Positions 10,264 to 59,127 of a stretch of DNA of 64,000 nt are shown here, one piece after another. The stretch's first letter is position 1. Every line of letters begins with the position of its first letter. Origin of the DNA: Minisyncoccota bacterium (GTDB lineage Bacteria > Patescibacteriota > Minisyncoccia > Phycocordibacterales > CSBR16-193); the NCBI GenBank assembly GCA_040905715.1, contig JBBDRA010000002.1, positions 101,968 through 165,967 on the forward strand. The letters run 5' to 3'. The translations under genes and the position numbers were made by a program. The notes beneath the pieces were generated by a model. That model was given only the letters and a program-made list of their open reading frames with translations. It was not told where the DNA came from and did no database searches.

Positions 10264-10366
10264 CGTATTGATTGTTATAATAATGCTGTGCACATATCGC
10301 ACCCTTCAGCGCAGAATATGGGGGGGTGGTATGATGACAGAGTCACTATGCCTGTAAATTAATTGT

Positions 10367-10804: not shown

Positions 10805-10891
10805 TCAGTTGCATAACTAACATGTAACGCATACGAACAAGACTGAATTGTTCATCGTATCGATATGATACACTAGAGAAAGCTCATTATT

Positions 10892-11554
10892 ATGGCAAAA
10901 CGAAGCACTCCATCACAAGATTTTATTCCGATCAAAGAGATTCGCGACGACGTTGTGATACTCAAGAACGGATCCCTGCGGGCCATACTTATGACCTCAA
11001 CGGTTAACTTTGGTTTGAAATCAAAAGAAGAGCAGGAGTCTACGCTCTATCAATTCCAGAACTTTTTAAATTCTCTCGATTTTTCTACGCAGATCTGTGT
11101 TCAGTCCCGTCGACTTGATATTCGTCCGTACCTTCAGCTTCTTGCGGAACGTCAAAAAGAACAAGTGAACGAGCTTCTAAAGGTTCAAACAAAAGAATAT
11201 ATAGAATTCGTTAAGACCTTTACCGCCAAAACAAATATAATGGCGAAGCATTTTTACGTTATTGTGCCGTATACGCCAACTACAATATCGACTTCCGGCG
11301 GTGGTATTGCGGATAAATTAAAAGGGTTAGTTGGCATGGGCGGATCTGACGACGAGAAAGAGGAGGCAGCTGAGCAAACATTTGATCAGCAGCGAAGCCA
11401 GCTTGAGGCACGGCTGTCTGTTGTGGAGCAGGGATTGATCCGCTCCGGTGTTCGCAGTGCTCGGCTCGGTACCGATGAGTTGACTGAACTTTTTTACCAG
11501 ACCTTTAACCCGGGCGAGACCGATATTCCGGTCAATAAATCGGATGATGAATAA
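10892..11554 (+). CDS. VirB4 N-terminal domain (Orf16/TcpF-like), a separate ORF from the ATPase body
   Basis: SQDFIPIKEIRDDVVILKNGSLRAILMTSTVNFGLKS...FQNFLNSLDFS matches the conserved N-terminal pattern of Gram-positive VirB4 homologs. Ends 24 nt before the ATPase ORF, which is in a different frame. Confidence 0.45.
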   Translation: MAKRSTPSQDFIPIKEIRDDVVILKNGSLRAILMTSTVNFGLKSKEEQESTLYQFQNFLNSLDFSTQICVQSRRLDIRPYLQLLAERQKEQVNELLKVQTKEYIEFVKTFTAKTNIMAKHFYVIVPYTPTTISTSGGGIADKLKGLVGMGGSDDEKEEAAEQTFDQQRSQLEARLSVVEQGLIRSGVRSARLGTDELTELFYQTFNPGETDIPVNKSDDE

Positions 11555-11577
11555 ATCGCGGTAATTGCACTATATAT

Positions 11578-13416: not shown

Positions 13417-13422
13417 CCTTCC

Positions 13423-14115
13423 ATGCCAGAACCGCGCCCTTATAGCAACGATACGAGAAGAGAGACAGGTCCGGCACCGGTAGCGCCGGGAGGGGTTGGT
13501 CCTAAGATGGGAAATGAAGAGGATTTTGAAAAAGATTTCTCTCAAGAAAAGAAGTCTGCGGTAAAAGAGGGTGAGGGTGGGCAGCAAAAAAGATTACAAC
13601 AGCAAAAAACTGGAAGAGGGTCGCGTAAAGGTCGGGTTGCACAACGTGGTTTAACGCGGGCTCGCGCAAAAACTCGTCAGGCGCTTCGAGCGAGCCGAAG
13701 GCAGGAGCAGTTAGAGCAGAGCGTCTCCCAAACTCCAAAGAAAAAGCTGACAGGGTGGCCGTTCTACGTTGTTCTGTTTCTCGCGATCATTAAAGATATT
13801 GTTGACATTATCGTGACGATATTTGTAATCTCTTCAATTGCGAGTACAGCTGCTGCTGCGTTGCTTACCATTGTTATCGTTCCATACTATCTTTACAGCG
13901 GTGTTTTGCCGAAAACAAAGAAGGTTGTGATGTGGGTTATTACAGCTGTTATTGCGTATGTTCCGTTTCTCGCGGTTCTCCCTACGGCAACAATTAATGT
14001 TGTTTTGACACGGATCATGACGAACAATGAGCTTTTCCAGGCAGTGGCAAGCAAGGTAAGCGTAAAAGGAAACATCCGCCGAACCGCGCGTCGAAAAGCA
14101 CAGTCAGCAATGTAG
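13423..14115 (+). CDS. Membrane protein (basic N-terminal region, three C-terminal TM helices)
   Basis: Composition and hydropathy from the translation. Confidence 0.4.
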   Translation: MPEPRPYSNDTRRETGPAPVAPGGVGPKMGNEEDFEKDFSQEKKSAVKEGEGGQQKRLQQQKTGRGSRKGRVAQRGLTRARAKTRQALRASRRQEQLEQSVSQTPKKKLTGWPFYVVLFLAIIKDIVDIIVTIFVISSIASTAAAALLTIVIVPYYLYSGVLPKTKKVVMWVITAVIAYVPFLAVLPTATINVVLTRIMTNNELFQAVASKVSVKGNIRRTARRKAQSAM

Positions 14116-14167
14116 TGGATAATATGCTCACCCCACTTCTAAATAGACGTGATAGAATAACACTATA

Positions 14168-14899
14168 ATGCAAGCGATGAGCATAAAACATAAAGTATTT
14201 ACAGGTCTTGCGATAGCGCTTTTGCTAATACTTGCCCCAAGCGCTCTAGTTCAAGCGCAAGAAGTCGACGTGGATCTGATCTGGGAGGCAGAGTCGTATA
14301 CGCCGGTTTTGTATGACGGAAAATCACGCTATACACCGGGTGCGTCGGTAACACTGCAGGCAGTGCCGTATCGTGTCGGGACAGGTGAAACTATTGATCC
14401 AGCTGTTACAGAATTTACTTGGAAAGTTAATGGGCGACAGATGCGCCAGGGAGTGGGAGAAGATGCGTTTGTTTTCAATGGGTCTACGCAAAAAGAGCAC
14501 ACGATCTCGGTTACGCTAAGAAACAGTAATAAGATAAGTCAGTCAGTAACACTAAAACCATCAGCTCCGGAAGTTGTTTTGTATCCCGAAAGCCCTCTTT
14601 ACGGTACTCAGTCTGCATTTGCACTTATGGGAACATTTCACATGCGTGATCAAGAAGCAACTATTCGCGCCGTACCGTATTACTTCACGGTTGCGTCCGC
14701 GGTCGATCTAGGGCTCCTCTATCGCTGGAGTGTTAACGGAGAGGATATAGATCAGGATCTCACAGGAGACGATGCTTCCGCGTTAACCATGCGTGCCCCC
14801 GAAGGCAATGGATCGGCGCATCTCGGGTTAGAGGTGGAGAAGCAAAACTCACTGTATCATCTTGTCCGAGATCAGTTGAATGTCAGATACGGGCTATAG
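14168..14899 (+). CDS. Secreted hypothetical protein
   Basis: Signal peptide MQAMSIKHKVFTGLAIALLLILAPSALVQA followed by a beta-rich composition. Confidence 0.45.
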   Translation: MQAMSIKHKVFTGLAIALLLILAPSALVQAQEVDVDLIWEAESYTPVLYDGKSRYTPGASVTLQAVPYRVGTGETIDPAVTEFTWKVNGRQMRQGVGEDAFVFNGSTQKEHTISVTLRNSNKISQSVTLKPSAPEVVLYPESPLYGTQSAFALMGTFHMRDQEATIRAVPYYFTVASAVDLGLLYRWSVNGEDIDQDLTGDDASALTMRAPEGNGSAHLGLEVEKQNSLYHLVRDQLNVRYGL

Positions 14900-15740
14900 C
14901 TCATCGAGAGACATGAATACTTTATTTATTATAATAAAAAAACAGTATCAGATACTCGGGGGAGTGGTTCTTGCTTTTATACTTCCGGTGGTTACGTACG
15001 CTCAAAATGATTACGTGCCGTTGGTGCCACTACCAGGGATCGATGGGTCCGGAGGGATCGGGCTGGCAAATTACTTTCAGCAGATGTTCATTCTACTGCT
15101 TAGTTTAACCACGGTCTTCGCGGTGTTGATGATTGTGATTGGCGGATTGCAATACATGACGGCCGGGGACAATGCGAGCAAAGTATCTGGAGCAAAAGAA
15201 ACCATTCAAAATGCTTTATACGGCCTTTTTCTTGCTATCGGTGCCTGGCTCATTCTTTACACCATTAATCCGACCATCCTCAGCTTAACAATCGGGGGTG
15301 ACGAGATTGAGCATCAATCATCCTATGGGTTTATGCGCAATCGAGTGACAACAGCCACGGTGTCGTCTGATTGGATGGGAAACAATTTTTTTGAATATAT
15401 CGCCGGCGCGAGCGACCCGGAGGATGCCGCAATTCAACAGTGCCTCCAAAAAGCCGCACAAATAAATAATGTAAGGGACGAGTATAATATATATAATATT
15501 CAGTCCGGTATGTGCACCAATCCAGAACAGGTCACTCGATATGATGGAGCTGTTGGGTACATCGCTCGTTTTGATTATGCGCGCGTATTCCCCGATACCC
15601 GTTTCGGGCCTGAGCGGTATTTCTCGGATACCATTGAAGAATGCCGAAATCGGCGGGATACAATAATACAGTCAGCAGCGAACCTGGGCGTACCGGCGAG
15701 CGCTCTAGATGCTTCTAATTGTCAGCCGTACACTCATTAA
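14880..15740 (+). CDS. VirB2/TrbC-like pilin with a C-terminal extension
   Basis: Signal peptide, then two closely spaced hydrophobic helices (FILLLSLTTVFAVLMIVIGGLQY and LYGLFLAIGAWLILYTI) typical of T4SS pilins, then roughly 150 aa of Cys-containing extension. Confidence 0.5.
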   Translation: MSDTGYSSSRDMNTLFIIIKKQYQILGGVVLAFILPVVTYAQNDYVPLVPLPGIDGSGGIGLANYFQQMFILLLSLTTVFAVLMIVIGGLQYMTAGDNASKVSGAKETIQNALYGLFLAIGAWLILYTINPTILSLTIGGDEIEHQSSYGFMRNRVTTATVSSDWMGNNFFEYIAGASDPEDAAIQQCLQKAAQINNVRDEYNIYNIQSGMCTNPEQVTRYDGAVGYIARFDYARVFPDTRFGPERYFSDTIEECRNRRDTIIQSAANLGVPASALDASNCQPYTH

Positions 15741-17080
15741 ATATGAAAAAGATCTTATACATCGCTGTGGTGCTTCTTGTTGTCGTTTGTGCGGCTGCTG
15801 TCGGTCTGTACGCATACCTACCAATCGGTGATGTGAATCCGGAGACCGGCGAGATAGTAAAGATCCAGGATTATTTGCCAATAGCAAATGATAGATCAGG
15901 TGATCCGGATTCTTCAGATGCGGGAGGTGATCAGACTCAGGATGAGGAAGGAGGTTCTCCGGCTGATACAACGTCTTCAGACGAAGAGACCTTACCGGCG
16001 CTGCGCGACCTTTCCGGAGAACCGGTTGCTGGTGCGATCGCGTTTGAGCAGACAGAGCAAGTAGGAACATCAACCCATGTATTTACTGAGATACGCTACA
16101 CGACGGTTGCACAAGGACACGTGCACAGTGCTCGGTCTGATCGGTCGGGTACCGACAGGGTTACCAATGAAACAAATCGAAAAACCGTTAATTCTGTCTG
16201 GACATCACCCGTTACCACAATTTTGCAGACAGTTGATACTAACAGGGATAGTATTACATCGCTGCTGGTTACGATCCACGATGAGCAGGCCACGTCATCC
16301 TCTCTGCGAGAGGTGAGTGGAAATTTTCTTAGCAACACTATTAAGAACATTGTCTCGGCACCAACCGGTGGTCAGATAGTCCTGATTCGATCGCAAGAGA
16401 GTGGTGGGGTTTCTGTTGAAGTAGGTCAGCCGGGAGAACAGATGACGGTGTTGTATACGACACCGCTGAGTGACTGGCAGATCGCATGGCCGGCTTCGGC
16501 ACAGGTTTTATTGACAACCAATCCGGGTGCTGGTGATGACGGATTCCTGTATTCGATCAATACGCAAAACGGCGCACGTACTCGATTGCTCGGTGGTATT
16601 GCCGGTCTGACAGTACGTATGAATTCGGGTGGTTCAAGGTTGCTTTACAATGAGAGTACGAGGAGCGGATTCCAGTTGTACAGCTACACTATTGAAACAG
16701 GTGAGAGCTCTGAACTTGTCACACACCAAACTCTGCCTGAGAAATGCACATGGAGTTCCGAGAGTTCAATAATTGCTTACTGCGGTGTTCCAAGAGAGGT
16801 TCCGTCTGCTCAGTATCCAGATGATTGGTATAAAGGTCGTGTGTCATTTGACGACCACCTAGCCCGGTTTAATGTCGAGACAGGAAAGGTTGAAATTCTT
16901 GAGGATCTCTCAGCAAAAATAGAAGGAGGTGGGGACGTTATCGAGCCCTTCCTCGGGCCCAACGAAGAGTATCTTTTCTTCACCAACAAAAAAGACGGTC
17001 ACTTGTGGAGCTACCGTCTCTCTGATTCAGAAGAGGCGGCTTCGACCAACTCTGGCTCTGAAGAGGGAGCTGATTTCTAG
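15719..17080 (+). CDS. Membrane-anchored beta-propeller-like protein (PD40/TolB-like repeats)
   Basis: N-terminal TM helix, Asp/Ser-rich linker and repeated beta-strand motifs. Confidence 0.45.
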   Translation: MSAVHSLNMKKILYIAVVLLVVVCAAAVGLYAYLPIGDVNPETGEIVKIQDYLPIANDRSGDPDSSDAGGDQTQDEEGGSPADTTSSDEETLPALRDLSGEPVAGAIAFEQTEQVGTSTHVFTEIRYTTVAQGHVHSARSDRSGTDRVTNETNRKTVNSVWTSPVTTILQTVDTNRDSITSLLVTIHDEQATSSSLREVSGNFLSNTIKNIVSAPTGGQIVLIRSQESGGVSVEVGQPGEQMTVLYTTPLSDWQIAWPASAQVLLTTNPGAGDDGFLYSINTQNGARTRLLGGIAGLTVRMNSGGSRLLYNESTRSGFQLYSYTIETGESSELVTHQTLPEKCTWSSESSIIAYCGVPREVPSAQYPDDWYKGRVSFDDHLARFNVETGKVEILEDLSAKIEGGGDVIEPFLGPNEEYLFFTNKKDGHLWSYRLSDSEEAASTNSGSEEGADF

Positions 17081-19417: not shown

Positions 19418-20800
19418 ATGGAAACTGTGGACAATAAAAAACTATGGAACAGCGTCTTGGTTGAGATAGAGTTAAATGTTTCGAAAGCAAATTTTAACAC
19501 GTGGTTCAGAGACACGTATATTCTCAAGCAAGAAGAAGGGGTTATTTATCTGGCCACACCGAACACGTTCGTAAAAGAATGGCTATCTCACAAGTATCAC
19601 AATTTTGTCCTCCGTATTCTCCGCAACATCTCTCCTGACGTACGCTCTCTGGAGTATGTCATCACAAAGAATCAGCCGAAGAATCCGCCCCAGCAGTCAC
19701 ACACCTCTCCACAAACAGAGAAACTTGGCCAAGGACAATCTACAGCAGGAGAGTTGCCTCTTGAAGAGCATTACATCAATAAAGATGACAATCTGAACCC
19801 GCGATATGGCTTCGACACCTTTATTGTGGGTCCTTTCAATGAGCTTGCGTACGCTGCTTCTCAAGCGATCTTAAAACAGCCGGGAAGAATGTATAATCCG
19901 CTTTTTGTGTACGGCGATACCGGTCACGGCAAGACTCATTTGATTCAGGCGATCGGTAACGCGCTCAAGAATGAAGAGGGAACTGACCGCAAGATCTTTT
20001 ACGTTACCTCTGAACGTTTTGTGATCGACTACATTAACGCAATTCAGGCAAACAAAGTAACACCGTTCAAGGAAAAATATCGCAAGTACGATATTTTGAT
20101 CATGGATGACATTCAGTTCCTTTCGAACAAAGAGAAGACGCAAGAAGAGCTTTTTCACCTTTTCAATACACTCTACGACAACAACAAGCAGATCATTTTC
20201 TCGTCCGATAAACACCCGAACTATATACCTGGCTTGGAAGATCGACTAAAATCACGGTTTAGTGCCGGCATGATCGTGGATATTCCGGCTCCGGACGCAG
20301 AGTCACGGGCTGCAATTCTGCGCGAGAAAGCAAAGATGAATAATATTGAGCTTGACCCGGAGGTGGTCGAGCACATCGCCTTCTCGGTGGAAGGGAATGT
20401 ACGCGACCTTGAAGGGGTCATTAATACGGTTATGTGCCAGCAGGAGCTCAAAGGGAGACCGTTGAACGTAGGGGAGGTGAAACAGGTCATTAAGAGCAGC
20501 GAGAAGCCTAAGAAGACAATGTCAGCTGAAGAGATCATTAAGACGATCGCTAATTATTACAACATTGACGAGCAAGCAATTTACCAGAAAACACGTCGGA
20601 AAGAGGTAATAAAGCCTCGTCAGCTGATCATGTTTGTGATGCGTGAGGACTTTGGTTCCTCCTATCCTTCCATCGGCCAGAAGCTTGGCGGGCGGGATCA
20701 TACGACTGTTATTCATTCCTGCGAGAAAATACGAGGAGAGCTAAAAACAGACACCGCCCTTCACCAGGAACTGAATCAGATCCGTGCACTTATTTCGTAA
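19418..20800 (+). CDS. dnaA: Chromosomal replication initiator DnaA
   Basis: AAA+ Walker A GDTGHGKTHL and a C-terminal DnaA-box-binding domain. Confidence 0.95.
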   Translation: METVDNKKLWNSVLVEIELNVSKANFNTWFRDTYILKQEEGVIYLATPNTFVKEWLSHKYHNFVLRILRNISPDVRSLEYVITKNQPKNPPQQSHTSPQTEKLGQGQSTAGELPLEEHYINKDDNLNPRYGFDTFIVGPFNELAYAASQAILKQPGRMYNPLFVYGDTGHGKTHLIQAIGNALKNEEGTDRKIFYVTSERFVIDYINAIQANKVTPFKEKYRKYDILIMDDIQFLSNKEKTQEELFHLFNTLYDNNKQIIFSSDKHPNYIPGLEDRLKSRFSAGMIVDIPAPDAESRAAILREKAKMNNIELDPEVVEHIAFSVEGNVRDLEGVINTVMCQQELKGRPLNVGEVKQVIKSSEKPKKTMSAEEIIKTIANYYNIDEQAIYQKTRRKEVIKPRQLIMFVMREDFGSSYPSIGQKLGGRDHTTVIHSCEKIRGELKTDTALHQELNQIRALIS

Positions 20801-20826
20801 AAGAGAAGAATTAATAAACACTATCT

Positions 20827-21930
20827 ATGAATGTTGAATGCGTAAAAGATAAACTCGAACAAGCGCTCACAAAGGCAACGCGAGTTACTAGCAAGAACGT
20901 GACACTGCCGGTGCTTCAGTGCGTACTCCTCGAAGCAGCTGACAACCAGCTTCTTATTCGGGCAACAAACCTTGATCTCGGCGTGGAGATCGGTTTGTCG
21001 GTGAAAGTAAAAGAAGAAGGTATTGTTGCGGTGCCCGGTTCGATCTTAGCTTCATTCCTTTCCCATGTTTCAGATGAGTCGGTTACGCTCGAGCGTGAAG
21101 GCGAGCAGCTTGTCGTGAAGACGGCAAGTGCTTCAACAAAGATCAATACGTATGACCACGAAGATTTTCCAACGATCCCACGAGTAACGGACGGTGTTTC
21201 TTTTTCAGTTGACTCGAGTACGTTTGCTGAAGGATTTCACTCGGTTGCGTACAGCGCTGCTGTCTCAAGTATGAAGCCGGAACTCTCAAGTGTGTATATC
21301 GCACCGGCAAGCGACCAGCGGTCACTCGTCTTTGCTGCAACTGATTCATTTCGCCTCGCGGAAAAGAAGGTACAAATGAAAGAGGTGCCGGTGTTTGATT
21401 ACGTACTTGTGCCGGTTAAGAATACGAACGAGATCACACGCATGCTCGATGAGTATAACGGCACTATCGAGATCAAGTTCGGTGAAAGCCAGGTGGCGTT
21501 TGTCGGCGACGGGCTGTATGTGACATCACGTACGGTCGATGGGGTATTCCCCGACTACCAGCAGATCATTCCGACTGAGTTTTCAGCTGAAGCGACCGTG
21601 TTAAAAAATGATCTGGTAACAGCGCTTAAAGTTGCCACCATCTTTACTGATAAATTTAATCAGGTAACCGTATCAATTGATCCGGGCCAAAAACAATTCA
21701 CCTTGCAGACAAAGAACAGTGAGGTTGGTGAGAATACGTATTCACTCGACGGAGCGTTGAGCGGCGAAGCATTAACGATAGCTTTTAATCATAAATACAT
21801 AATGGATAGTTTTCAGTCTATCACTACCGACAGCGTGGTGCTGAAACTGGGCGGCCCTGGCAAGCCGATGGTCATGAGCGGGGTTTCTGATCCATCTTTT
21901 CTTTACTTGGTGATGCCGATGAATAGATAG
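20827..21930 (+). CDS. dnaN: DNA polymerase III beta sliding clamp
   Basis: Three-domain clamp length (367 aa) immediately after dnaA. Confidence 0.9.
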   Translation: MNVECVKDKLEQALTKATRVTSKNVTLPVLQCVLLEAADNQLLIRATNLDLGVEIGLSVKVKEEGIVAVPGSILASFLSHVSDESVTLEREGEQLVVKTASASTKINTYDHEDFPTIPRVTDGVSFSVDSSTFAEGFHSVAYSAAVSSMKPELSSVYIAPASDQRSLVFAATDSFRLAEKKVQMKEVPVFDYVLVPVKNTNEITRMLDEYNGTIEIKFGESQVAFVGDGLYVTSRTVDGVFPDYQQIIPTEFSAEATVLKNDLVTALKVATIFTDKFNQVTVSIDPGQKQFTLQTKNSEVGENTYSLDGALSGEALTIAFNHKYIMDSFQSITTDSVVLKLGGPGKPMVMSGVSDPSFLYLVMPMNR

Positions 21931-34976: not shown

Positions 34977-35105
34977 TGTCCGCCCGGTAGCCTGCCTGCC
35001 GGAAGGCAGGGAATCGCCTCTCCCTTCGGTCGAAATGCGCTAAAAACATAGTCGCAAGCCTGTCTGCCAACAGGCAGGCTCCTTGTTTTTAGGCACCTTC
35101 GGTTC
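34977..35105. repeat. Degenerate partial copy of the tRNA-Lys 3-prime region interrupted by a 20-nt hairpin insert, plus an inverted T-loop-like ggttcgattcc
   Basis: tgtccgcccggtag[cctgcctgccggaaggcagg]gaatcgcc compared with the real tgtccgcccggtaggaatcgaacc at 35164-35190. Confidence 0.55.
35057..35090 (+). terminator. Intrinsic terminator after holA
   Basis: Stem agcctgtctg / caggcaggct with loop ccaa, followed by ccttgttttt. Confidence 0.5.
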
Positions 35106-35119
35106 GATTCCTTCCCAAG

Positions 35120-35157
35120 CATACAAAACAAAGGCACGGGAGAAAACCCGTGCCTTT
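35120..35157 (-). terminator. Intrinsic terminator downstream of tRNA-Lys
   Basis: Stem aaaggcacggg/cccgtgccttt followed on the minus strand by ttttgtat. Confidence 0.55.
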
Positions 35158-35166
35158 GTTTTGTTG

Positions 35167-35239
35167 TCCGCCCGGTAGGAATCGAACCTACGACCGTCTC
35201 CTTAAAAGGGAGCTGCTCTACCGACTGAGCTACGGGCGG
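35167..35239 (-). tRNA. tRNA-Lys (anticodon TTT)
   Basis: Cloverleaf read by hand: acceptor CCGCCCG/CGGGCGG, D-arm GCTC-AGTCGGTA-GAGC, anticodon loop CTTTTAA, T-arm GTAGG-TTCGATT-CCTAC. Confidence 0.8.
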
Positions 35240-35284: not shown

Positions 35285-35400
35285 CGAATGCACCGCCCGA
35301 AAGATTTTCTTACGGGCGGGAATGAGCGGTATCGCGCGAGAGCTAGCTCTCGCATGATCCGCGATTGACCGTTCGCAAGCTTTGCTTACGGGCGGGTAAT
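35285..35400. repeat. tRNA-Lys upstream region with two partial copies of the tRNA 5-prime end and palindromes
   Basis: cccgcccgtaag copies (minus-strand sense) at 35309-35320 and 35386-35397. Perfect 18-bp palindrome gcgagagctagctctcgc at 35336-35353. Confidence 0.5.
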
Positions 35401-41102: not shown

Positions 41103-41137
41103 GTTAACCTTTATACAAAGATCAATAAAAATAAGAC

Positions 41138-41170
41138 ACCGTTCGGTGTCTTATTTTTTATTAAATTTGG
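41138..41170 (+). terminator. Intrinsic terminator after rpsT
   Basis: Stem ataagacacc/ggtgtcttat followed by a T-run. Confidence 0.55.
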
Positions 41171-41222
41171 TGTACTTAATTTTCTGATGCCCCGCTGGCT
41201 GGCGGAGAACTAGAAAAAGAAG

Positions 41223-41250
41223 TGCTCCCGGCAGGAATCGGCCCCGCGAG
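41223..41250. repeat. Partial duplicate of the tRNA-Arg(GCG) 3-prime end (att-like)
   Basis: gtgctcccggcaggaatcg repeats the sequence at 41499-41517. Confidence 0.6.
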
Positions 41251-41257
41251 TTCTAAG

Positions 41258-41400
41258 TATTTTGCTTCGCTCAAACAAATAAGGCTTCTTGTGTTTTCTT
41301 CGAAAACATCCGCGAAGCGAATGTGTGCTTTTTTGGATACGGAACGTTACACTTGCAAAAAACACACATTCGCCTGGCCGGCGCCTCACATCGCTACGCG
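41258..41400. repeat. Repeat element copy A (about 135 bp; second copy at 51364-51500)
   Basis: Shares a 53-nt exact core cttcttgtgttttcttcgaaaacatccgcgaagcgaatgtgtgcttttttgga and a conserved long hairpin cgaatgtgtg...cacacattcg. Confidence 0.6.
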
Positions 41401-41465
41401 ATATGTTCCGGCGCTTCGATTCCTGACGAAAGTGCAGAAATGCACTTTCTCCGGAAACACAAATT

Positions 41466-41496
41466 AAAAAAACCAGGTAAAACCTGATTTTTTAAT
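41466..41496. terminator. Hairpin ccaggt-aaa-acctg with flanking A/T runs, immediately 3-prime of the tRNA on the minus strand
   Basis: Seen in sequence. Confidence 0.4.
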
Positions 41497-41499
41497 TTG

Positions 41500-41571
41500 T
41501 GCTCCCGGCAGGAATCGAACCTACATTACGAGCTCCGCAAGCCCGCGTTCTATCCGTTGAACTACGGGAGC
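41500..41571 (-). tRNA. tRNA-Arg (anticodon read as GCG)
   Basis: Acceptor GCTCCCG/CGGGAGC, D-arm GTTC-AACGGATA-GAAC, anticodon stem CGGGC/GCTCG with loop TTGCGGA (G37), T-arm GTAGG-TTCGATT-CCTGC. Confidence 0.75.
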
Positions 41572-41720
41572 AAATGAGGGGTATCGCGCAAAAGCATACT
41601 CTCTGGCAAGTGAGGGATACGAGAAAACTCGTTTTCATCGTATCACGAACGAAGTCAGAGAAAGCTATGCGACTTTGTTTTCTTTTGAACAGCTTTGCTT
41701 ACGGGAGCAAGGCTTGCGTC
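41565..41720. repeat. tRNA-Arg(GCG) leader region, inverted homolog of 45996-46130, including a partial tRNA 5-prime copy
   Basis: Over 90% identity in reverse complement to the leader of tRNA-Arg(TCT). The ttgctcccgtaag copy is at 41698-41710. Confidence 0.6.
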
Positions 41721-45829: not shown

Positions 45830-46194
45830 GAATTTGCTCCCGTAAGTAAACTTGCTCTGACAACGCTCGGACGGTACGTAAACGCGTTTCCGACCGCTCC
45901 TCGCTTGTCAGAGTAAGCGAAGCTTTCGAAAGCTACATTCGCGGATCATGCAAAAGCAAGCACCACCAGGGCACTTCTTGTTTTCTAATTCACAGCGAAG
46001 CTGTTCATAAGAAAACAAAGTCGCATAGCTTTCTCTGACTTCGTTCGTGATACGATGAAAACGAGTTTTCTCGTATCACTCACTTGTCAGAGAGTATGCT
46101 TTTGCGTGATGCCGTTCACTTGCTCCCGTAAGCGAAGCTTTCGGGATCTGCGTTCGAAGAAAATAGAAGTAAACTTCAATTTTGCTTCTCACTT
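45830..46194. repeat. tRNA-Arg(TCT) leader with two partial tRNA 5-prime copies and nested palindromes
   Basis: ttgctcccgtaag at 45834-45846 and 46119-46131. Palindromes agctttcgaaagct (45921-45934) and aaacgcgttt. 45996-46130 is the inverted homolog of 41565-41700. Confidence 0.6.
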
Positions 46195-46266
46195 GCTCCC
46201 GTAGTTCAACGGATAGAACAAGGGGCTTCTATCCCCTCAATGTGGGTTCGATTCCTACCGGGAGCA
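46195..46266 (+). tRNA. tRNA-Arg (anticodon TCT)
   Basis: Acceptor GCTCCCG/CGGGAGC, anticodon stem AGGGG/CCCCT with loop CTTCTAT, T-arm GTGGG-TTCGATT-CCTAC. The first 25 nt are identical to tRNA-Arg(GCG). Confidence 0.85.
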
Positions 46267-46271
46267 CAATG

Positions 46272-46318
46272 AAACACACGGATGTTTTTGAAAAAAACAT
46301 CCGTGTGTTTCGTATTTT
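46272..46318 (+). terminator. Intrinsic terminator (18-bp stem aaacacacggatgttttt/aaaaacatccgtgtgttt) after the tRNA
   Basis: Seen in sequence. Confidence 0.55.
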
Positions 46319-46422
46319 GGAGTAGGAATCGAACCGGGAAGGGGTCGGGGAACGGTAGTTCCCCGTGAAGGAAAGGTGGAAAAACCGTGGGTTTTCCAGA
46401 TGTTCTTTCCTGCCGGGAGCAC
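46319..46422 (+). repeat. tRNA-associated structured element, copy 1 (GGGAAGGGGTCGGG hairpin family)
   Basis: Left flank ggagtaggaatcgaacc, hairpin cggggaac-ggta-gttccccg, second hairpin ggaaaaacc-gtg-ggttttcc, right flank cctgccgggagcac (tRNA 3-prime duplicate). Confidence 0.6.
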
Positions 46423-46582: not shown

Positions 46583-47161
46583 ATGGTGAAGAAGAAGGTA
46601 AAAGCGAAAGTCGGCGAGAACAGATCTCCTCAGCTAACGGGTGAACAAATACAGTATATCGAAGAGAGAATAGCCAGTATTGGATCGGCAAAGCGTTCGC
46701 TCGATGAGTTGCAGGCGCAAATGGATCAGCAGATCGAAGAGGTTCGCGAGTCGTTCCGATCACGAACACAGCAGAGTGCTACTGTGGTTCAGGAAAAGCT
46801 AGATGAGCTCTATCAGTTCTGTGAGGAGAACGCCGAGGCGGTTACTCAGGGCGGACTTCAGCAAAGTGTGAAGGTAAGCAACGGGCAACTTGGTTGGAGA
46901 TTAGGGAATACCACCGTGGAAGTAATAGAAGCTGAAGATTCGGTGATAGCTCGTATCAAGCAGCGCAGTCTAAGTCGAAAGTTGTTGATACAGACTCCGC
47001 GACTGAACAAGATAGCTATCAAAGCTTTTCTGGAAGCCGGTTGCCGCATTAAGGGTGTTGTGCTCAAAACACCTCAGCGGTTCTTCGTAAAGCCCTCTGA
47101 GACCGTGGAAGGGGTCTCGAAAGATGTTCAGACACTTCAAAAGCTCTCCGGCAAAAAGTAA
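46583..47161 (+). CDS. Phage Mu Gam-like DNA-end-binding protein
   Basis: Blockwise similarity to Mu Gam as recalled from memory, not checked against a database: FCEENAEAVTQGG vs WCEANRDELTNGG, NGQLGWRLGNTTVEV vs TGDVSWRVRPPSVSI, RLNKIAI vs EINKEAI. Confidence 0.65.
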   Translation: MVKKKVKAKVGENRSPQLTGEQIQYIEERIASIGSAKRSLDELQAQMDQQIEEVRESFRSRTQQSATVVQEKLDELYQFCEENAEAVTQGGLQQSVKVSNGQLGWRLGNTTVEVIEAEDSVIARIKQRSLSRKLLIQTPRLNKIAIKAFLEAGCRIKGVVLKTPQRFFVKPSETVEGVSKDVQTLQKLSGKK

Positions 47162-47234: not shown

Positions 47235-47395
47235 TAATTTGTGATATACTTCTATCCCAACAACACAAGTGAGTAGATAAAGAGGAAGAGGGTGTAATTC
47301 CCCACAGTCGCGCTACTGTAAAGTCAGACCTTCTTTATCGAACTTTTCCAAAGCTCACCGTGACGCGCGTTTCGTCGACTTTCTATATATAAGTC
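47235..47395 (+). promoter_or_regulatory. Candidate cobalamin riboswitch in the nrdB-nrdA leader
   Basis: GAGGAAGAGGGTGTAATTCCCCACAGTCGCGCTACTGTAAAGTCAGACC contains a GGTGnAAnTCC-like core, CGCTACTGT (B12-box-like GCCACTG with one mismatch) and an AGTCAG element. The leader is 314 nt long. Confidence 0.4.
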
Positions 47396-48805: not shown

Positions 48806-50494
48806 ATGGAGAAAAAACAAGACTTTTATTGGCTCAATGAAAACAGTATTGCATTCTTGGAGCGGGGGTATTTGCAGGAAGGTCAGAGTGCACAAGAGCG
48901 CATCCGAGAGATAGCCGACACCGCTGAACGGTATCTCGGCAAAGAAGGGTTTGCCGACAAGTTCTATGACTATATGGCAAAAGGGTACATCTCTCTCGCG
49001 TCTCCTGTGTGGTCGAATTTCGGGATCGACAAAGGGCTTCCGATCAGTTGTTTTGGTTCGTATGTGGGCGACAGTATGGGGAGCATTATGTTTACCCAGT
49101 CGGAGGTAGGTATGATGAGTAAATTTGGCGGTGGAACGTCCGGATACTTCGGCGCACTGAGATCTCGCGGATCGAACATAAGTCAGAACGGACACTCTTC
49201 CGGCTCAGTTCATTTCATGCAGCTTTTTGACCTGATGGTAGATGTGGTGAGTCAGGGTTCTGTGAGGCGGGGTCATTTTTCTCCATATCTTCCGATCGAA
49301 CATCCGGATATAGAAGAGTTTCTGCAGATAGCAACAGAGGGAAATCCTATACAGAATTTGAATCACGCGGTAACAGTAAGTGATGAGTGGCTTCAGGCGA
49401 TGGTCGACGGCGATGAAGAGAAGCGGGCTCTATGGGCAAAGGTAATACAGCGACGAAGCGAGATCGGATACCCATATATCATGTTCTCTGATAACGCCAA
49501 CAATAATACGGTCGATGTGTACAAGGATAAAGGTCATAAGATCTACGCAAGTAATCTGTGCAGTGAAATAATGCTTCCCTCAAACGAAAAGTGGTCGTTC
49601 GTGTGCTGTTTGTCATCATTGAACGTCCTTCACTATGATGACTGGAAAGACACTGATCTGGTAGAGACAATGACGTACTTCCTTGACGCGGTCATCACCG
49701 ACTTCTGCACGAAATTAGAGGCGATGCGGGATTCTGATAAGAAGGAAAAACAATTGGCCTTTCAGTTCATGGAGAGAGCATATACATTTGCGAAAGAGAA
49801 TCGAGCTATTGGGATCGGCGTACTTGGATGGCATTCACTGCTCCAGTCACGAATGCTTTCCTTTGAAAGCGACGAGGCGAATCAACTTAATGTTGAGATC
49901 TTTAAGTCTATTCGGGAAAAGGCATATACAGCTTCAGAAGCTCTCGCAGAGGACTTGGGAGAGCCTGAAGTGTTAAAGGGATATGGAAGGAGAAACACCA
50001 CGCTTATGGCTGTGGCCCCAACAACGTCTTCTGCGTTTATTCTCGGACAAGTATCGCAGAGTATCGAACCGGTTTGGTCAAACTGTTATGTCAAAGATGT
50101 ACAAAAGTTAAAAGTCACCATTAAAAATCCATTTCTCGAAGATCTTTTAGAAGAAAAGGGAAAGAATACTCGTGAAGTTTGGGAAGACATTCGCAATAAC
50201 GACGGATCGGTTCAGCATTTGGAGTTTCTTACTGAAGAAGAAAGAAAGGTGTTCCGGACTTTTGCGGAATTGGATCAATCTGTAGTAATCGAGCAAGCGG
50301 CGGTACGGCAGCAGTACATAGACCAAGGGCAGTCCTTGAACATTGCTGTTTCTCCCGATGTTTCGGCAAAAGATATTAATCAACTGTACATTCAGGCGTG
50401 GCGTCAGGGAATTAAGGCGCTTTACTATCAGCATAGTGTAAACGCGGCGCAGGCGTTGAGCCGCAAAAAGATCTGTTTGAATTGCGAGGCCTGA
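48806..50494 (+). CDS. nrdA: Class I ribonucleotide reductase large subunit without an ATP-cone
   Basis: Active-site motif NLCSEI and the C-terminal Cys pair region. 562 aa. Confidence 0.85.
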   Translation: MEKKQDFYWLNENSIAFLERGYLQEGQSAQERIREIADTAERYLGKEGFADKFYDYMAKGYISLASPVWSNFGIDKGLPISCFGSYVGDSMGSIMFTQSEVGMMSKFGGGTSGYFGALRSRGSNISQNGHSSGSVHFMQLFDLMVDVVSQGSVRRGHFSPYLPIEHPDIEEFLQIATEGNPIQNLNHAVTVSDEWLQAMVDGDEEKRALWAKVIQRRSEIGYPYIMFSDNANNNTVDVYKDKGHKIYASNLCSEIMLPSNEKWSFVCCLSSLNVLHYDDWKDTDLVETMTYFLDAVITDFCTKLEAMRDSDKKEKQLAFQFMERAYTFAKENRAIGIGVLGWHSLLQSRMLSFESDEANQLNVEIFKSIREKAYTASEALAEDLGEPEVLKGYGRRNTTLMAVAPTTSSAFILGQVSQSIEPVWSNCYVKDVQKLKVTIKNPFLEDLLEEKGKNTREVWEDIRNNDGSVQHLEFLTEEERKVFRTFAELDQSVVIEQAAVRQQYIDQGQSLNIAVSPDVSAKDINQLYIQAWRQGIKALYYQHSVNAAQALSRKKICLNCEA

Positions 50495-51160: not shown

Positions 51161-51363
51161 AAACCTAATCACAAGAACAGGATGTGGAAGTTTTGTTTTG
51201 TGGGGTGGGGCTTCCGGTAGGGGCTCGGTCACACATAAATTTCCTGACGGAAATTTTGCGCGTTCCGTTATCACCGGTCTCGCACAGCTCGACATCGGTG
51301 ATTTCGCTTCGCGAACCTCCTGAAACATAAAGCAGTTTATGTTTCAGCCCCTCTCGTGGTTTT

Positions 51364-51500
51364 TGCCTTGCTTCGCAAACAAATCTTCTTGTGTTTTCTT
51401 CGAAAACATCCGCGAAGCGAATGTGTGCTTTTTTGGAGATGGAGCGCTTCGCTAGCAAGAAACACACATTCGGCTGCGCCTTTCTCGTCCCTACGCAGGC
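51364..51500. repeat. Repeat element copy B (homolog of 41258-41400)
   Basis: Same 53-nt core as copy A (positions 51385-51437) and the same cgaatgtgtg...cacacattcg hairpin with a different loop. Confidence 0.6.
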
Positions 51501-51519
51501 AAAGCAGTTTGCCTGCTCA

Positions 51520-51588
51520 ACGCCCACAAAGCAAAAATCTGCACGAATAATTCGCACAGATTTTTGCTTTGTGGGCGTTGAGGGACTC
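51520..51588. repeat. 24-bp perfect-stem hairpin overlapping a partial duplicate of the tRNA-Val 3-prime end
   Basis: caacgcccacaaagcaaaaatctg...cagatttttgctttgtgggcgttg. tgtgggcgttgagggactc at 51570-51588 repeats the sequence at 51720-51738. Confidence 0.55.
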
Positions 51589-51719
51589 AAATCTTACAGA
51601 TTCTGTACAGGTTTTCACTATTTTGTTTCGTTCCTCACAAAATAGTTGAAGAACCTTTTCGAGTCCGCGTTACGCCGCTGTCGCGGCTACGCCTCATCGT
51701 CCTCGCTCCTTCGTCGCTG

Positions 51720-51793
51720 TGGGCGTTGAGGGACTCGAACCCCCGGCCTATCCGGTGTAAACGGATTGCTCTAGCCAACTGAGCTAAACGCCC
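51720..51793 (-). tRNA. tRNA-Val (anticodon TAC)
   Basis: Acceptor GGGCGTT/AACGCCC, D-arm GCTC-AGTTGGCTA-GAGC, anticodon stem ATCCG/CGGAT with loop TTTACAC, T-arm GGGGG-TTCGAGT-CCCTC. Confidence 0.8.
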
Positions 51794-51891: not shown

Positions 51892-51912
51892 GCGGGAAGC
51901 TAAACGCCCTAT
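51892..51912. repeat. Partial copy of the tRNA-Val 5-prime end upstream of the gene
   Basis: Minus-strand sense atagggcgtttagcttcccgc compared with the real gggcgtttagctcag. Confidence 0.45.
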
Positions 51913-54420: not shown

Positions 54421-54450
54421 AGTAAATCCACAGCTTGTGGATTTACTTTT
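54421..54450 (+). terminator. Hairpin agtaaatccacagcttgtggatttact plus T-run after rplS
   Basis: Seen in sequence. Confidence 0.5.
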
Positions 54451-54482
54451 ATCTAATTTGGTATACAATAAACACTAGAGAT

Positions 54483-55130
54483 ATGAGACGTGGATCAAAA
54501 CCAAAAGGGAAGGTGCGGATACAGTGGTCGTCTAACTTTGCGTATGCAATTGGTTTGCTTGCGGCAGATGGATGTTTATCAAAAGATGGTAGGCATATTG
54601 ACGTAACATCGAATGATTACGATCAACTTGAAAATTTTATTAAAGCTCTTGATATTGACGTAAAAATTACTCAAAAATCATCCGGAAGAGGGTATACAAG
54701 TTGGCATGTTCAGTTCAGTGATGTTCTTTTTTATAAGTTTCTTACTGAAATAGGTATAACCTCAGCAAAGAGTAAGACATTAAGAAAGCTTGATATTCCC
54801 GACGAATACTTTTTTGATTTTTTAAGAGGGGAATTTGATGGGGATGGACATTTTTATAGTTATTGGGATAAGCGATGGACGAATAGTTATATGTTTTATT
54901 TAACTTTTATTGGTGCAAGTCAGAAATTTCTTGAATGGATTTCACAAACTAATGAGCGTCTCATTGGTATAAAAGCGAATGTAATTTTTTGTAAAAAATC
55001 AAAGGTATATCAGTTACGTTATGCAAAAGAAAGCACTCTGGAAATAATCAATAAAATGTATTATACTTCCAGCGCACTTCATTTGAGGAGAAAAAAGAAA
55101 AAGATAGATGCTTTAGTAGTGCCTCGATAA
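54483..55130 (+). CDS. Free-standing double-motif LAGLIDADG homing endonuclease
   Basis: Motif 1 AYAIGLLAADGCL and motif 2 FLRGEFDGDGHF. AT-rich gene with its own ATG after the rplS terminator. Confidence 0.75.
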   Translation: MRRGSKPKGKVRIQWSSNFAYAIGLLAADGCLSKDGRHIDVTSNDYDQLENFIKALDIDVKITQKSSGRGYTSWHVQFSDVLFYKFLTEIGITSAKSKTLRKLDIPDEYFFDFLRGEFDGDGHFYSYWDKRWTNSYMFYLTFIGASQKFLEWISQTNERLIGIKANVIFCKKSKVYQLRYAKESTLEIINKMYYTSSALHLRRKKKKIDALVVPR

Positions 55131-55134
55131 TAAT

Positions 55135-55216
55135 GCCCAGGTGGCGGAATTGGTATACGCAATAGGTTGAGGGCCTATGCTCCTAGAGCGTGCGGGTTCA
55201 AGTCCCGCCCTGGGCA
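55135..55216 (+). tRNA. tRNA-Leu (anticodon GAG)
   Basis: Type II tRNA. Acceptor GCCCAGG/CCTGGGC, anticodon stem ATAGG/CCTAT with loop TTGAGGG (G37), variable arm GCTCCTAGAGCGT, T-arm GCGGG-TTCAAGT-CCCGC. Confidence 0.8.
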
Positions 55217-55259
55217 CAAAAGAACGAAGTGAATTTTGGGAACAGGGCTGCGAACTGTT

Positions 55260-55390
55260 TACGGAGTAAACAGGAGCTGGGACTTGGGGAAGGGGTCGGG
55301 AAACGGGAGTTTCCCGTGGAGGAAGGCAGCGACCGAAGGGAGTGTTGGAAAACCGCGGGTTTCCAAGTTAGTCTTGCCCTGGGCACAAAA
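55260..55390 (+). repeat. tRNA-associated structured element, copy 2, ending in a 15-nt duplicate of the tRNA-Leu 3-prime end
   Basis: Motif ggggaaggggtcgggaaacgggagtttcccgtggagg (55287-55322), second hairpin ggaaaacc-gcg-ggtttcc (55347-55364). gccctgggcacaaaa at 55376-55390 repeats 55207-55221. Confidence 0.65.
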
Positions 55391-55391
55391 A

Positions 55392-55418
55392 AAGACCAGC
55401 ATCAAGCTGGTCTTTTTT
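55392..55418 (+). terminator. Intrinsic terminator (agaccagc/gctggtct plus T6)
   Basis: Seen in sequence. Confidence 0.55.
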
Positions 55419-58763: not shown

Positions 58764-58850
58764 CATATGGTGCCTATGGTATAATGGTTATTACGGAAGC
58801 TTGTGGAGCTTCAAATTCCAGTTCAATTCTGGATAGGCACCCAGAATATA

Positions 58851-58882
58851 AAAACAACTCCATGCCTGGAGTTGTTTTTTAT
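58851..58882 (+). terminator. Intrinsic terminator (aaaaacaactcca-tgcc-tggagttgtttttt)
   Basis: Seen in sequence. Confidence 0.5.
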
Positions 58883-58898
58883 TAGTAAGAAGTTACCG

Positions 58899-58945
58899 GG
58901 AATCGAACGGGAAGGGGTCGGGAAAACTAGAGTTTTCCCGTGAAG
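58899..58945 (+). repeat. tRNA-associated structured element, copy 3 (partial, no adjacent tRNA)
   Basis: ggaatcgaac followed by gggaaggggtcgggaaaac-taga-gttttcccgtgaag. Confidence 0.55.
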
Positions 58946-59127
58946 TCTGCCTGCGGGCGCTGTCAGGGAAAGCTCTGCTTATGAATGGAATGAATTAGGA
59001 AACAAGCAATGCTCTTTGGGTATTTCCCAGAAGTGAGATAGCGACGGAATCCCGCTTTCGCGGGCTCAGCTTTTTCGGAGACTTATTCTCAGCCAAAATC
59101 ATATATAACCTGTGATACTATTCACTC

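Follow-up and report, generated by a model that had tools for sequence, protein, structure and literature searches.

The 64,000-nucleotide stretch of DNA considered here, which we call the window (GenBank assembly GCA_040905715.1, contig JBBDRA010000002.1, positions 101,968 to 165,967 of the forward strand), is chromosomal DNA of a bacterium of the Patescibacteria, also known as the candidate phyla radiation (CPR). Short duplications of tRNA 3′ ends lie a little downstream of several of its tRNA genes, and an original prediction, made from sequence alone, read these as att-like footprints of integrase-mediated insertion. On balance, we favour a different reading. By their architecture, the window elements probably belong to a family of structured RNA modules that trail tRNA and transfer-messenger RNA (tmRNA) genes and offer them an alternative 3′ strand. 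We found no description of such modules in the literature that was searched.

The modules share an order of parts, given here in the direction of the tRNA. The tRNA, whose own 3′ strand (the last ~22 nt) we call A1, is usually followed by a terminator-like hairpin, then by A′, the complement of A1 from the T-loop to the discriminator plus one or two trailer nucleotides, then by a structured body, by A2, the distal copy of A1, and often by a second terminator. A′ is often split at the junction of acceptor and T stems by an 8-10-bp hairpin, and its anti-T part tracks the neighbouring tRNA, being of the GGAATCGAAC type at Lys and the two Arg loci, GGACTCGAA at Val and GGGACTTG at Leu. With A′ and A2 both built into this architecture, the att-like duplication would be one strand of an RNA helix system and not a recombination scar.

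Repeats and complements at the window tRNAs

All five predicted repeats of tRNA 3′ ends, at Lys, Arg-GCG, Arg-TCT, Val and Leu, are present and lie within 1 nt of their predicted positions. The Leu repeat, GCCCTGGGCACAAAA, occurs at both 55207-55221 and 55376-55390, and that of Val comprises 18 nt plus flank at 51719-51737 and 51570-51590. At Arg-GCG, 19 nt at 41499-41517 recur at 41222-41240, with a start at 41222 where 41223 had been given. The copy at Arg-TCT reads CCTGCCGGGAGCAC (46409-46422) against CCTACCGGGAGCAC in the tRNA, and at Lys a hairpin insert of 19 nt (34991-35009) separates a leading CGATTCC (35010-35016) from CTACCGGGCGGACA (34977-34990). Across the five loci, the copies of the T-loop-to-discriminator strand are 13-21 nt long and lie 130-280 nt 3′ of the tRNA, every one spanning the 3′ half of the T-loop, the 3′ strands of the T and acceptor stems, the discriminator and 1-5 trailer nucleotides.

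By our own arithmetic, an exact copy of at least 11 nt of a 24-nt tail is expected by chance within 500 nt at a rate of ~0.002 per tRNA. Such copies follow four of the seven window tRNAs, and Arg-TCT has one in addition with a single mismatch. When the window is joined with a related set of 80 Patescibacteria loci (loci outside the window are designated by L numbers), giving 63 tRNAs, 56 of them in the related loci, exact copies are found downstream of 13 of the 63 and upstream of none. To the repeats as predicted, we can add a complement strand A′ in each insert, a tandem module at Val, a module body at His, and copies of tRNA 5′ ends upstream of some genes.

The elements in the window lie on the same strand as a tRNA gene and just after it, and they contain both the A′ complement and a distal copy reaching from T-loop to discriminator. 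Their bodies include a type A, GGGAAGGGGUCGGG-hairpin-CCCGUGAAGG, found at Arg-UCU, Leu and His, and a type B, a 101-nt repeat found at Arg-GCG and at the second Val element (Val-2). Within the genome, these repeats are 89% identical over 38 nt (three copies) and 88% identical over 101 nt (two copies). The two type-B copies, at 41276-41376 and 51376-51476, are exactly 10,100 nt apart and contain a long hairpin, GAAUGUGUGUUU...AAGCACACAUUC.

The integrase reading starts from a genuine likeness. tRNA and tmRNA genes are classic targets of tyrosine integrases, and the modules match this site preference. As in the att sites of tyrosine-integrase islands and of CIME-type (cis-mobilisable element) remnants, a direct repeat of the T-loop-to-3′-end block flanks the insert, with the intact gene proximal. 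Nevertheless, we regard it as very unlikely that the modules are attL/attR remnants of an inserted island or prophage, decayed to a few hundred bases. The inserts measure 110-330 nt, they hold the complement of the repeat, which integration leaves unexplained, and their RNA structure is conserved and covaries from genome to genome. C56 is the first nucleotide of the distal copy, which directly follows a body ending in ...GUGAC and lacks the 5′ arm of the T stem as a partner. Roughly one in three related elements is without any repeat. Further, five or six of seven tRNAs would have been hit within 25 kb of housekeeping DNA. The original prediction had called for a recombinase to be sought, and a Pfam search of 30 open reading frames (ORFs) spread across the window found no integrase, other site-specific recombinase or reverse transcriptase, either as a gene or as a recombinase pseudogene. 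Decayed islands, the first of the three fallback explanations offered with that prediction, are very unlikely.

Structure and distribution of the related core

Evidence at the level of RNA comes from metagenome contigs, which were scanned with a body-only pattern, CGAGKCRGGGTCGWGA N24-54 TCSTGACC, that contains no tRNA-derived bases. The scan yielded at least 120 loci with at least 125 matches. Eighty-one non-redundant cores were aligned, and they fold into two hairpins over a 100-nt core, G[A/C]C-GGAG...CGAG-G[U/G]C and GGGUCG...GUGACC; a covariance model built from them is called R1 below. Cells of the core helices are paired in 98.2% of cases, as against 24-41% in controls with the helices slid along the alignment. 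Both sides have changed in 247 cells, compared with 78 ± 6 in shuffled alignments, none of 500 shuffles reaching the observed value, and one pair is divided between AU in 41 sequences, CG in 39 and another combination in 1. The invariant columns of the core are partly set by the search pattern; the covarying columns are not. By eye, three columns of the second hairpin that lie outside standard pairs (81, 88 and 147) also seem to change together, C[G/A]GGGUCG[A/U]GA ... UC[G/C]UGACC occurring with either G,A,G or A,U,C, which hints at a non-canonical pair or base triple.

The arms carry a signal of their own. Duplexes of A′ with A1 contain 27 G.U or U.G pairs and 2 A.C or C.A pairs in 18 curated cases, and 36 and 4, respectively, in 33 independent metagenome loci. 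As an A.C pair is a G.U pair viewed from the other strand, this excess implies that selection for pairing acts on the tRNA-sense strand, in the form of RNA or, conceivably, of single-stranded DNA.

Among the matches listed, 77 of 125 have a tRNA on the same strand no more than 450 nt upstream, representing 34 anticodons, and a further ~24 have no upstream sequence available. In about 34 of the 77 (class 1), the body starts 95-116 nt after the tRNA and ends in ...UCGUGAC, which is followed by C56 through N73 and in most cases by CA, as in the gene; the typical distal copy is therefore tRNA nucleotides 56-73. In 22 class-1 loci among the matches listed, the copy is identical to the neighbouring tRNA at 18 of 18 positions, and its boundary is always C56. 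Where the CCA is encoded in the gene (L209), the copy includes it. In class 2, about 25 of the 77, the body starts 78-83 nt after the tRNA, only 5-7 nt complement the tRNA end, and the element ends in ...GUGACC-ACA with no copy. Further, at least one core match follows a tRNA with a group I intron, and at least two follow tmRNA by ~110 nt, with an A′ complementary to the tmRNA 3′ end (tmRNA genes with modules after them lie at L197 6473-7060 on the plus strand and L238 1155-1731 on the minus strand).

A test that is independent of the core took, for every tRNA of the 80 related loci, the 140 nt that follow it and compared their pairing with the tRNA's own 20-nt tail and with the tails of other tRNAs. 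Pairing with the own tail ranks best or nearly so for ~17 of 63 tRNAs (His, Gln, Leu, Ser, Glu and Ala), most of which carry the copy too. R1 matches nine elements, in L001, L018, L020 (two), L032, L071, L073 (two) and L077 with 28-86 bits. In the window, searches of Rfam 15 at the gathering score and at permissive E values report only the tRNAs, plus a weak adenosylcobalamin (AdoCbl) riboswitch match elsewhere. None of its families, among them tmRNA, Y RNA, T-box, group I and II introns, self-cleaving ribozymes and GOLLD/ROOL, matches the window elements at E values up to 5, or L001, L002 and L070 up to 1.

Could the arms be a non-functional by-product of template switching, that is, of 'quasi-palindrome' copying of flanking DNA that leaves an inverted and then a direct copy? 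A1, the terminator and A′ do form one continuous palindrome that includes trailer nucleotides, an element beside ftsZ has arms copied from coding sequence, and a perfect A′ occurs without A2, as does the reverse. Yet such copying sits poorly with G.U tolerance that is strand-asymmetric (36 against 4), with a C56 boundary that is invariant, with strong covariation in the body and with recurrence over 34 anticodons among the matches listed. It also sits poorly with a small conserved hairpin, GCAAACUGCUUUGC, that occupies a fixed place inside A′ in several genomes and recurs in Val-2. We consider this account distinctly improbable.

A more serious alternative is mobility: the modules would be small, non-autonomous elements inserting into tRNA and tmRNA genes at the T-loop or 3′ end, or behind terminator hairpins. 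On this view, a target duplication would account for the two copies, the complement would act as a guide or hairpin for insertion (through pairing of single-stranded DNA or RNA, or template switching), and the RNA structure would serve the element. One argument for mobility comes from the tRNA-His gene, which holds a syntenic position 5′ of the ribonucleotide reductase (RNR) genes in many related genomes. A module is present there in L001, L002, L010, L020, L071 and L077, and absent in L004, L009, L027, L030, L035, L036, L039 and L076. With only ~70-75% identity in RNR protein among these genomes, a gain looks the same as a loss. The original prediction had proposed looking for empty sites in relatives, and the outcome is divided, for this site is filled in at least six relatives and empty in at least eight, but sister assemblies that are 99.96% identical show no presence/absence polymorphism. 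These sisters derive from four contigs with an identical RNR protein, representing the same population at 99.96-100% DNA identity, and some break inside elements: L081 ends at window position 51366, in Val-2, and L082 starts at 46400, in the Arg-UCU module.

Mobility would also explain why any tRNA isotype or tmRNA can be the neighbour, why the boundary at C56 is precise, why copies occur in tandem (at Val in the window, and as five 136-nt units in L210), why orphan and ftsZ-linked copies have arms drawn from local upstream sequence, and why the window holds repeats 89% identical over 38 nt and 88% over 101 nt. The L210 array (4051-4663, minus strand) consists of five perfect tandem units of hairpin, A′, core and partial copy, and could be a true amplification or an assembly artefact; its 'target' is not a tRNA, being the 3′ end of an earlier element whose body is of a different type. 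Together, the orphans, the ftsZ element and the L210 units suggest that any upstream sequence can give rise to arms, through insertion or templated copying.

Set against this is the want of any enzyme: no transposase, integrase or reverse transcriptase is encoded by the 30 window ORFs, and clustering of ORFs within 4 kb of at least 120 elements revealed only ordinary neighbours (such as YraN and tRNA-modification enzymes) and no enriched family. Two diagnostic motifs, GAGTCGGGGTCGAGA and AGCAAACTGCTTTGCT, gave ~50 matches each in viral contigs, none of them with an extended motif or tRNA context; these matches are thus due to chance, and viral contigs hold no copies by this measure. The duplication is 18-20 nt long in class 1 and missing in class 2. 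Moreover, we know of no mechanism by which ~20 nt of target would be copied in both inverted and direct orientation. Common-core copies on the same contig are no more alike than copies on different contigs, so intragenomic homogeneity is unsupported as proof of recent transposition for the common core. The modules resemble miniature inverted-repeat transposable elements (MITEs), repetitive extragenic palindromic sequences (REP) with their bacterial interspersed mosaic elements (BIMEs), and Correia-type repeats in being small, intergenic, hairpin-forming and multi-copy, in sitting at gene 3′ ends and in breaking assemblies. They differ in that the arms are specific to the tRNA rather than family-wide, that they are always co-oriented with the tRNA and that helices of the body covary. 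By the criteria for MITEs, there are no family-wide terminal inverted repeats; the arms differ with each tRNA and equal the target. Elements of the IS200/IS605 type were rejected since orientation follows the tRNA and not replication, and group II class C introns since there is no reverse transcriptase and the size is wrong.

We rate a mobile identity as possible but doubtful. The prediction's second fallback, non-autonomous tRNA-targeting mini-elements, accordingly survives in part: presence and absence at the His locus, tandem and orphan copies and intragenomic repeats speak for it, but no enzyme is enriched nearby. A mobile origin is compatible with the RNA-module reading and is a live rival to it. 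The third fallback, a tRNA-linked family of small RNA genes, fits best because architecture is conserved, covariation is strong, G.U tolerance is strand-specific and co-orientation with the tRNA is constant. Taken as a whole, the interpretation offered with the prediction finds partial support.

Predicted strand exchange

A′ has two possible partners. In 17 of 18 cases its pairing with A1 equals or exceeds that with A2, and in L071, L068 and Arg-UCU A′ clearly matches the tRNA better. In minimum free energy (MFE) folds of transcripts that run from the tRNA 5′ end to A2, the 5′ acceptor strand of the tRNA is predicted to pair with A2 at all five window loci. A1 and A′ would extend the terminator hairpin as a near-perfect duplex of 35-45 bp, leaving the D and anticodon arms intact, and the ordinary tRNA fold is calculated to be 4-23 kcal/mol worse. 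The exchanged fold is also the predicted MFE structure in 21 of 23 canonical class-1 loci, by a mean difference of 7.1 kcal/mol; the two exceptions, which share one sequence, have a disruptive change in A2. Modelled in this way, it amounts to a cloverleaf that the module interrupts between U55 and C56. At loci with a perfect A2, A′ averages 14.8 Watson-Crick pairs, 1.1 G.U pairs and 2.1 unpaired positions of 18. A2 is thus more exact than A′, as expected if it must satisfy the tRNA's own stems.

From these folds we predict that A1, A′ and A2 make up a three-strand exchange. A transcript that stops at the first terminator would give an ordinary pre-tRNA. One that reads through would let A′ zip with A1, lengthening the terminator hairpin by ~40 bp, and A2 could then take the place of A1 in the acceptor and T stems. 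The product would be a cloverleaf that holds a 150-280-nt module at the U55/C56 junction and finishes in an authentic tRNA 3′ end. Either this long RNA, or the module alone, closed by A′:A2, would have tRNA-type ends, which could allow the tRNA-processing machinery to mature and stabilise module RNA. One tRNA body would in effect possess two interchangeable 3′ strands.

Several known systems share parts of this design. In attenuators and T-box switches, too, alternative partners and a terminator lie within a switch, as A′ can pair with A1 or A2 here, but in the modules the competing strands are the tRNA 3′ strand and its copy, and there is no evident regulated downstream gene. tRNA-like handles, such as plant mitochondrial t-elements and mascRNA-type 3′ ends, and the tRNA-like domains of tmRNA and bacterial Y RNA resemble a module closed by A′:A2, which has a tRNA-type 3′ end and an acceptor-like helix stacked on a second helix with a side hairpin. 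The modules differ in that A′ is a plain complement that includes N73 and C74, that there is no T-loop, that identity pairs are lost (L068) and that no Rfam family covers them. A tRNA mimic that could be aminoacylated was rejected on the grounds of that lost identity pair and of a discriminator paired with A′. Likewise, a primer-binding site for mature tRNA was dismissed, as A′ matches the genomic trailer and not CCA. Box C/D-like guides, hammerhead, hairpin and hepatitis delta virus-like ribozymes, and motifs like those of signal recognition particle RNA or T-boxes gave no model match and only vague resemblance.

The predicted long form invites comparison with introns and intervening sequences. 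On one account, the module is an intron-like or intervening-sequence-like insert in the T-loop, between U55 and C56, with a spare 3′ exon plus a terminator to serve as a fail-safe; long transcripts would undergo cleavage, for example by RNase III acting on the A1:A′ hairpin or by the body itself, and possibly religation. The complete cloverleaf, interrupted only at 55/56 in the predicted form, agrees with such an insert, as do the tRNA-grade exactness of A2 and the 35-45-bp near-perfect duplex formed by A1:A′ and the terminator hairpin. Patescibacteria are, in addition, unusually rich in tRNA introns (PMC13011429); such introns share with the modules the phylum and the presence of structured RNA in or attached to tRNA genes. 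These group I introns, however, sit in the anticodon loop, exceed 200 nt and match Rfam RF00028 (PMC13011429), whereas the modules are located at the 3′ end or beyond it, fit no intron model and leave the tRNA gene intact. The paper that describes the introns makes no mention of T-loop or T-arm features (PMC13011429). The intervening sequences of 23S ribosomal RNA, excised by RNase III, are alike in forming a long, near-perfect hairpin from a loop of a stable RNA and in their sporadic distribution; here the host RNA is a tRNA, the insert contains a duplicate downstream strand, and excision is only predicted. Splicing would be unneeded, for the tRNA is already complete with its proximal copy, and a copy of a 3′ exon is missing from class 2 and from the tmRNA case in L238; neither group I nor other ribozyme models match. 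We therefore hold the account to be improbable.

Returning to the favoured reading of a trailing RNA module with an alternative 3′ strand, a number of observations weigh against it or limit its reach. R1 finds no significant match in the window bodies (the best scores 6 bits, E 7.7), and for this reason they are not filed under the common-core family. The link of the window to that family consists only of architecture and short shared motifs: GGGGUCG-hairpin-CGUGA, ACUUAGAACUCG..CC before A2 at Arg-GCG, and both GUGUGACC and the small hairpin GCAAACUGCUUUGC in Val-2. Read-through of the first terminator is an assumption, and a window scan found no promoter-like site between terminator and module. 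If the tRNA folds during transcription, A′ may never invade it. Co-transcripts of class 2 are predicted to keep the normal tRNA fold; as about a third of elements belong to this copyless class, and in L238 the tmRNA 3′ end is matched by a perfect, split complement but by no distal copy, strand exchange is not a universal function of the body. Nor is the A′:A2 helix a faithful mimic of an acceptor end, because A′ pairs with N73 and C74, and in L068 the G3:U70 identity pair of tRNA-Ala is replaced by A:U. Orphan elements (L254 and L202/L278) have matched A′ and A2 without an intact upstream gene. In L256 (~3060-3300, plus strand), a core element just after ftsZ has a 5′ arm, ACCTCGTAG ... AGCAGGCACTGCC, complementary to the coding sequence of ftsZ over its final ~30 nt, and beyond the core there is a copy of 5-6 nt. 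The ftsZ-linked and orphan elements indicate that arms are not restricted to tRNAs.

We further speculate, at some remove from the evidence and with considerable doubt, that the modules constitute an RNA element of a new class, able to join any tRNA-like 3′ end through strand exchange. It would encode both an antisense strand and a spare copy of the final 18-22 nt of its host RNA. In its long form, the product would be an oversized tRNA-like RNA whose T-loop holds the element, and the element would serve either as a self-masking and possibly mobile intervening sequence or as a cell-encoded spare or decoy tail against nucleases that attack the tail or T-loop. Cleavage of tRNA tails has been described as an immune strategy (PMC12851939).

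The window modules, their setting and their meaning

ARAGORN finds seven tRNAs between 35 and 59 kb of the window, in non-coding gaps of 360-860 nt that are large for so compact a genome. Modules accompany five or six of the seven within 25 kb of housekeeping DNA that adjoins dnaA and the genes of the replication origin, and three modules face convergent genes. The five tRNA genes described next were recognised by both ARAGORN and the Rfam tRNA model. The terminator-like hairpin before A′ is missing at Leu and at the first Val element, and a terminator scan places second terminators 3′ of A2 at Leu, Val and Arg-GCG.

tRNA-Lys(UUU) lies on the minus strand at 35166-35239, its last ~22 nt being A1. 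The gap between tRNA and module holds a terminator-like hairpin (35123-35164, from sequence and MFE fold), followed by A′ at 35101-35120 (GCTTGGGAAGGAATCGAACC), which complements the T-arm and the acceptor 3′ strand with a 12-nt exact antisense match; its calculated duplex with the tRNA tail has an energy of -31.5 kcal/mol. The body (35017-35100) ends in GACCGAAGGGAGAGG, a motif common to the Leu module and to a Lys-linked module in L232. The split A2 (34977-35016, the CGATTCC, hairpin and CTACCGGGCGGACA given above) is predicted to pair with the 5′ acceptor strand in the co-transcript.

The two Arg modules lie on opposite strands. tRNA-Arg(GCG), on the minus strand at 41499-41571, is followed by a hairpin at 41461-41498 (terminator scan 41493-41467) and by A′ at 41415-41460, in which GTGTTTCCGG, a hairpin (41426-41450) and the anti-T strand CAGGAATCGAA succeed one another; the partners of GTGTTTCCGG are the acceptor 3′ strand, N73 and C74, and two of the pairs are G.U. 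Its body (41241-41414), delimited by repeat search and fold, includes the type-B repeat. A2 (41222-41240) is the exact 19-nt copy CGATTCCTGCCGGGAGCAC, and a bidirectional terminator lies 3′ of the module at 41127-41158. tRNA-Arg(UCU), on the plus strand at 46195-46267, has a terminator with a 20-bp hairpin and U tract (46270-46312) and an A′, TATTTTGGAGTAGGAATCGAACC (46313-46335), with 14 nt of exact antisense to the T-arm and an acceptor part that pairs through U.G. The body (46336-46408), recognised from repeats and fold, is of type A, GGGAAGGGGUCGGGG-hairpin-CCCCGUGAAGG, with a second hairpin; A2 (46409-46422) differs from its own tRNA by one transition, A/G at 46412.

tRNA-Val(UAC), on the minus strand at 51719-51793, has two modules in tandem. 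The first (51570-51718) consists of an A′ made up of GGCGT (51689-51693), a hairpin (51672-51688) and the anti-T strand GGACTCGAAA (51657-51666), a body (51591-51656) and A2, TTGAGTCCCTCAACGCCCACA (51570-51590). A hairpin or terminator at 51528-51569 separates it from the second (51199-51527), which opens with GTGGGCGTTGAG, an exact complement of the copy in the first module, continues with the hairpin CAGGCAAACUGCUUUGCCUG and a degenerate anti-T strand, and ends, after a body with the type-B repeat and GUGUGACC, in the degenerate copy GAGCCCCTACCGGAAGCCCCAC. tRNA-Leu(GAG), on the plus strand at 55135-55217, is followed by an A′ (55243-55286) of CAGGGC, a hairpin (55255-55273) and the anti-T strand CTGGGACTTG, and by a type-A body (55287-55369) that is 89% identical to the Arg-UCU body over 38 nt. 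Its A2, AGTCTTGCCCTGGGCACAAAA (55370-55390), contains the repeat at 55376-55390 and has two C-to-T changes, CC/TT at 55374-55375, that retain pairing as G.U; a terminator follows at 55388-55418. Finally, the His-linked module (58850-59080, plus strand) has a terminator (58850-58880), an anti-T-like strand, GGGAATCGAAC (58898-58908), with one mismatch to the His T-arm, and a type-A body from 58909; no distal copy was found there.

Copies of tRNA 5′ ends, comprising a few leader nucleotides, the acceptor 5′ strand and GTA, occur 70-360 nt upstream of the Lys, Arg-GCG, Arg-UCU and Val genes. Lys has two on the minus strand at 35293-35396 (CCCGCCCGTAAG...), of which the proximal (35293-35320) is predicted to fold as an acceptor-like minihelix. 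Arg-UCU also has two (45836-45853 and 46122-46148, plus strand), within a structured leader of 370 nt, and Arg-GCG (41691-41708) and Val (51898-51910) have one each on the minus strand. Several are followed by a mini-hairpin and a complementary strand, giving acceptor-like minihelices that mirror the 3′ arrangement; in the related loci such copies precede only 2 of 56 tRNAs (Ala in L068, Ser in L031). A leader repeat of ~137 nt lies 5′ of both tRNA-Arg genes (41563-41699 on the minus strand, 45994-46130 on the plus strand); aligning the sister-assembly version of each leader with the window reveals it, as cross-matches of 93% identity, and the leaders fold extensively.

The region as a whole has housekeeping content: dnaA-dnaN, polA, ruvABC, a mur ligase gene, RNR and pilM. 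The large subunit of RNR (48806-50494) is 100% identical to a protein of a 'Candidatus Paceibacterota' metagenome-assembled genome (MAG) at NCBI, and others are at most 77% identical; with the nearest non-identical homologue at 77%, the RNR search gave no useful closer relatives. In the genome collection, the best loci for comparison with the window are all from CPR MAGs, at 68-74% identity. Beside yidC and dnaA-dnaN (19418-21930), genes for PrgI-like, TraC-like and VirB4/TraG-like ATPase proteins and a type IV secretion system pilin form a cluster (9232-17080), a type IV secretion or pilus module adjoining the origin genes. The AdoCbl (B12) riboswitch match is below threshold (47255-47375, plus strand; 39 bits against a gathering score of 50, E 4e-4) and lies just 5′ of an ATP-cone/RNR small-subunit gene. 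A phage Mu Gam-like gene (46583-47161, plus strand) stands directly 3′ of the Arg-UCU module, and a free-standing LAGLIDADG-type ORF (54435-55130, plus strand) ends 5 nt 5′ of tRNA-Leu, in no recognisable intron.

If the RNA-module reading is correct, many tRNA and tmRNA genes of a large and little-understood bacterial radiation carry an RNA module of an apparently undescribed kind, which could represent a structured RNA family of at least hundreds of members that is missing from Rfam 15. Island-finding tools routinely read direct repeats flanking tRNAs as integration scars, and in these genomes that interpretation would need revising. The modules also break MAG assemblies and inflate the apparently 'non-coding' fraction around tRNAs. 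A single tRNA body with two 3′ strands would bear on tRNA maturation in reduced genomes and on intervening sequences in tRNAs, and might also have a bearing on defence against nucleases that target tRNA tails.

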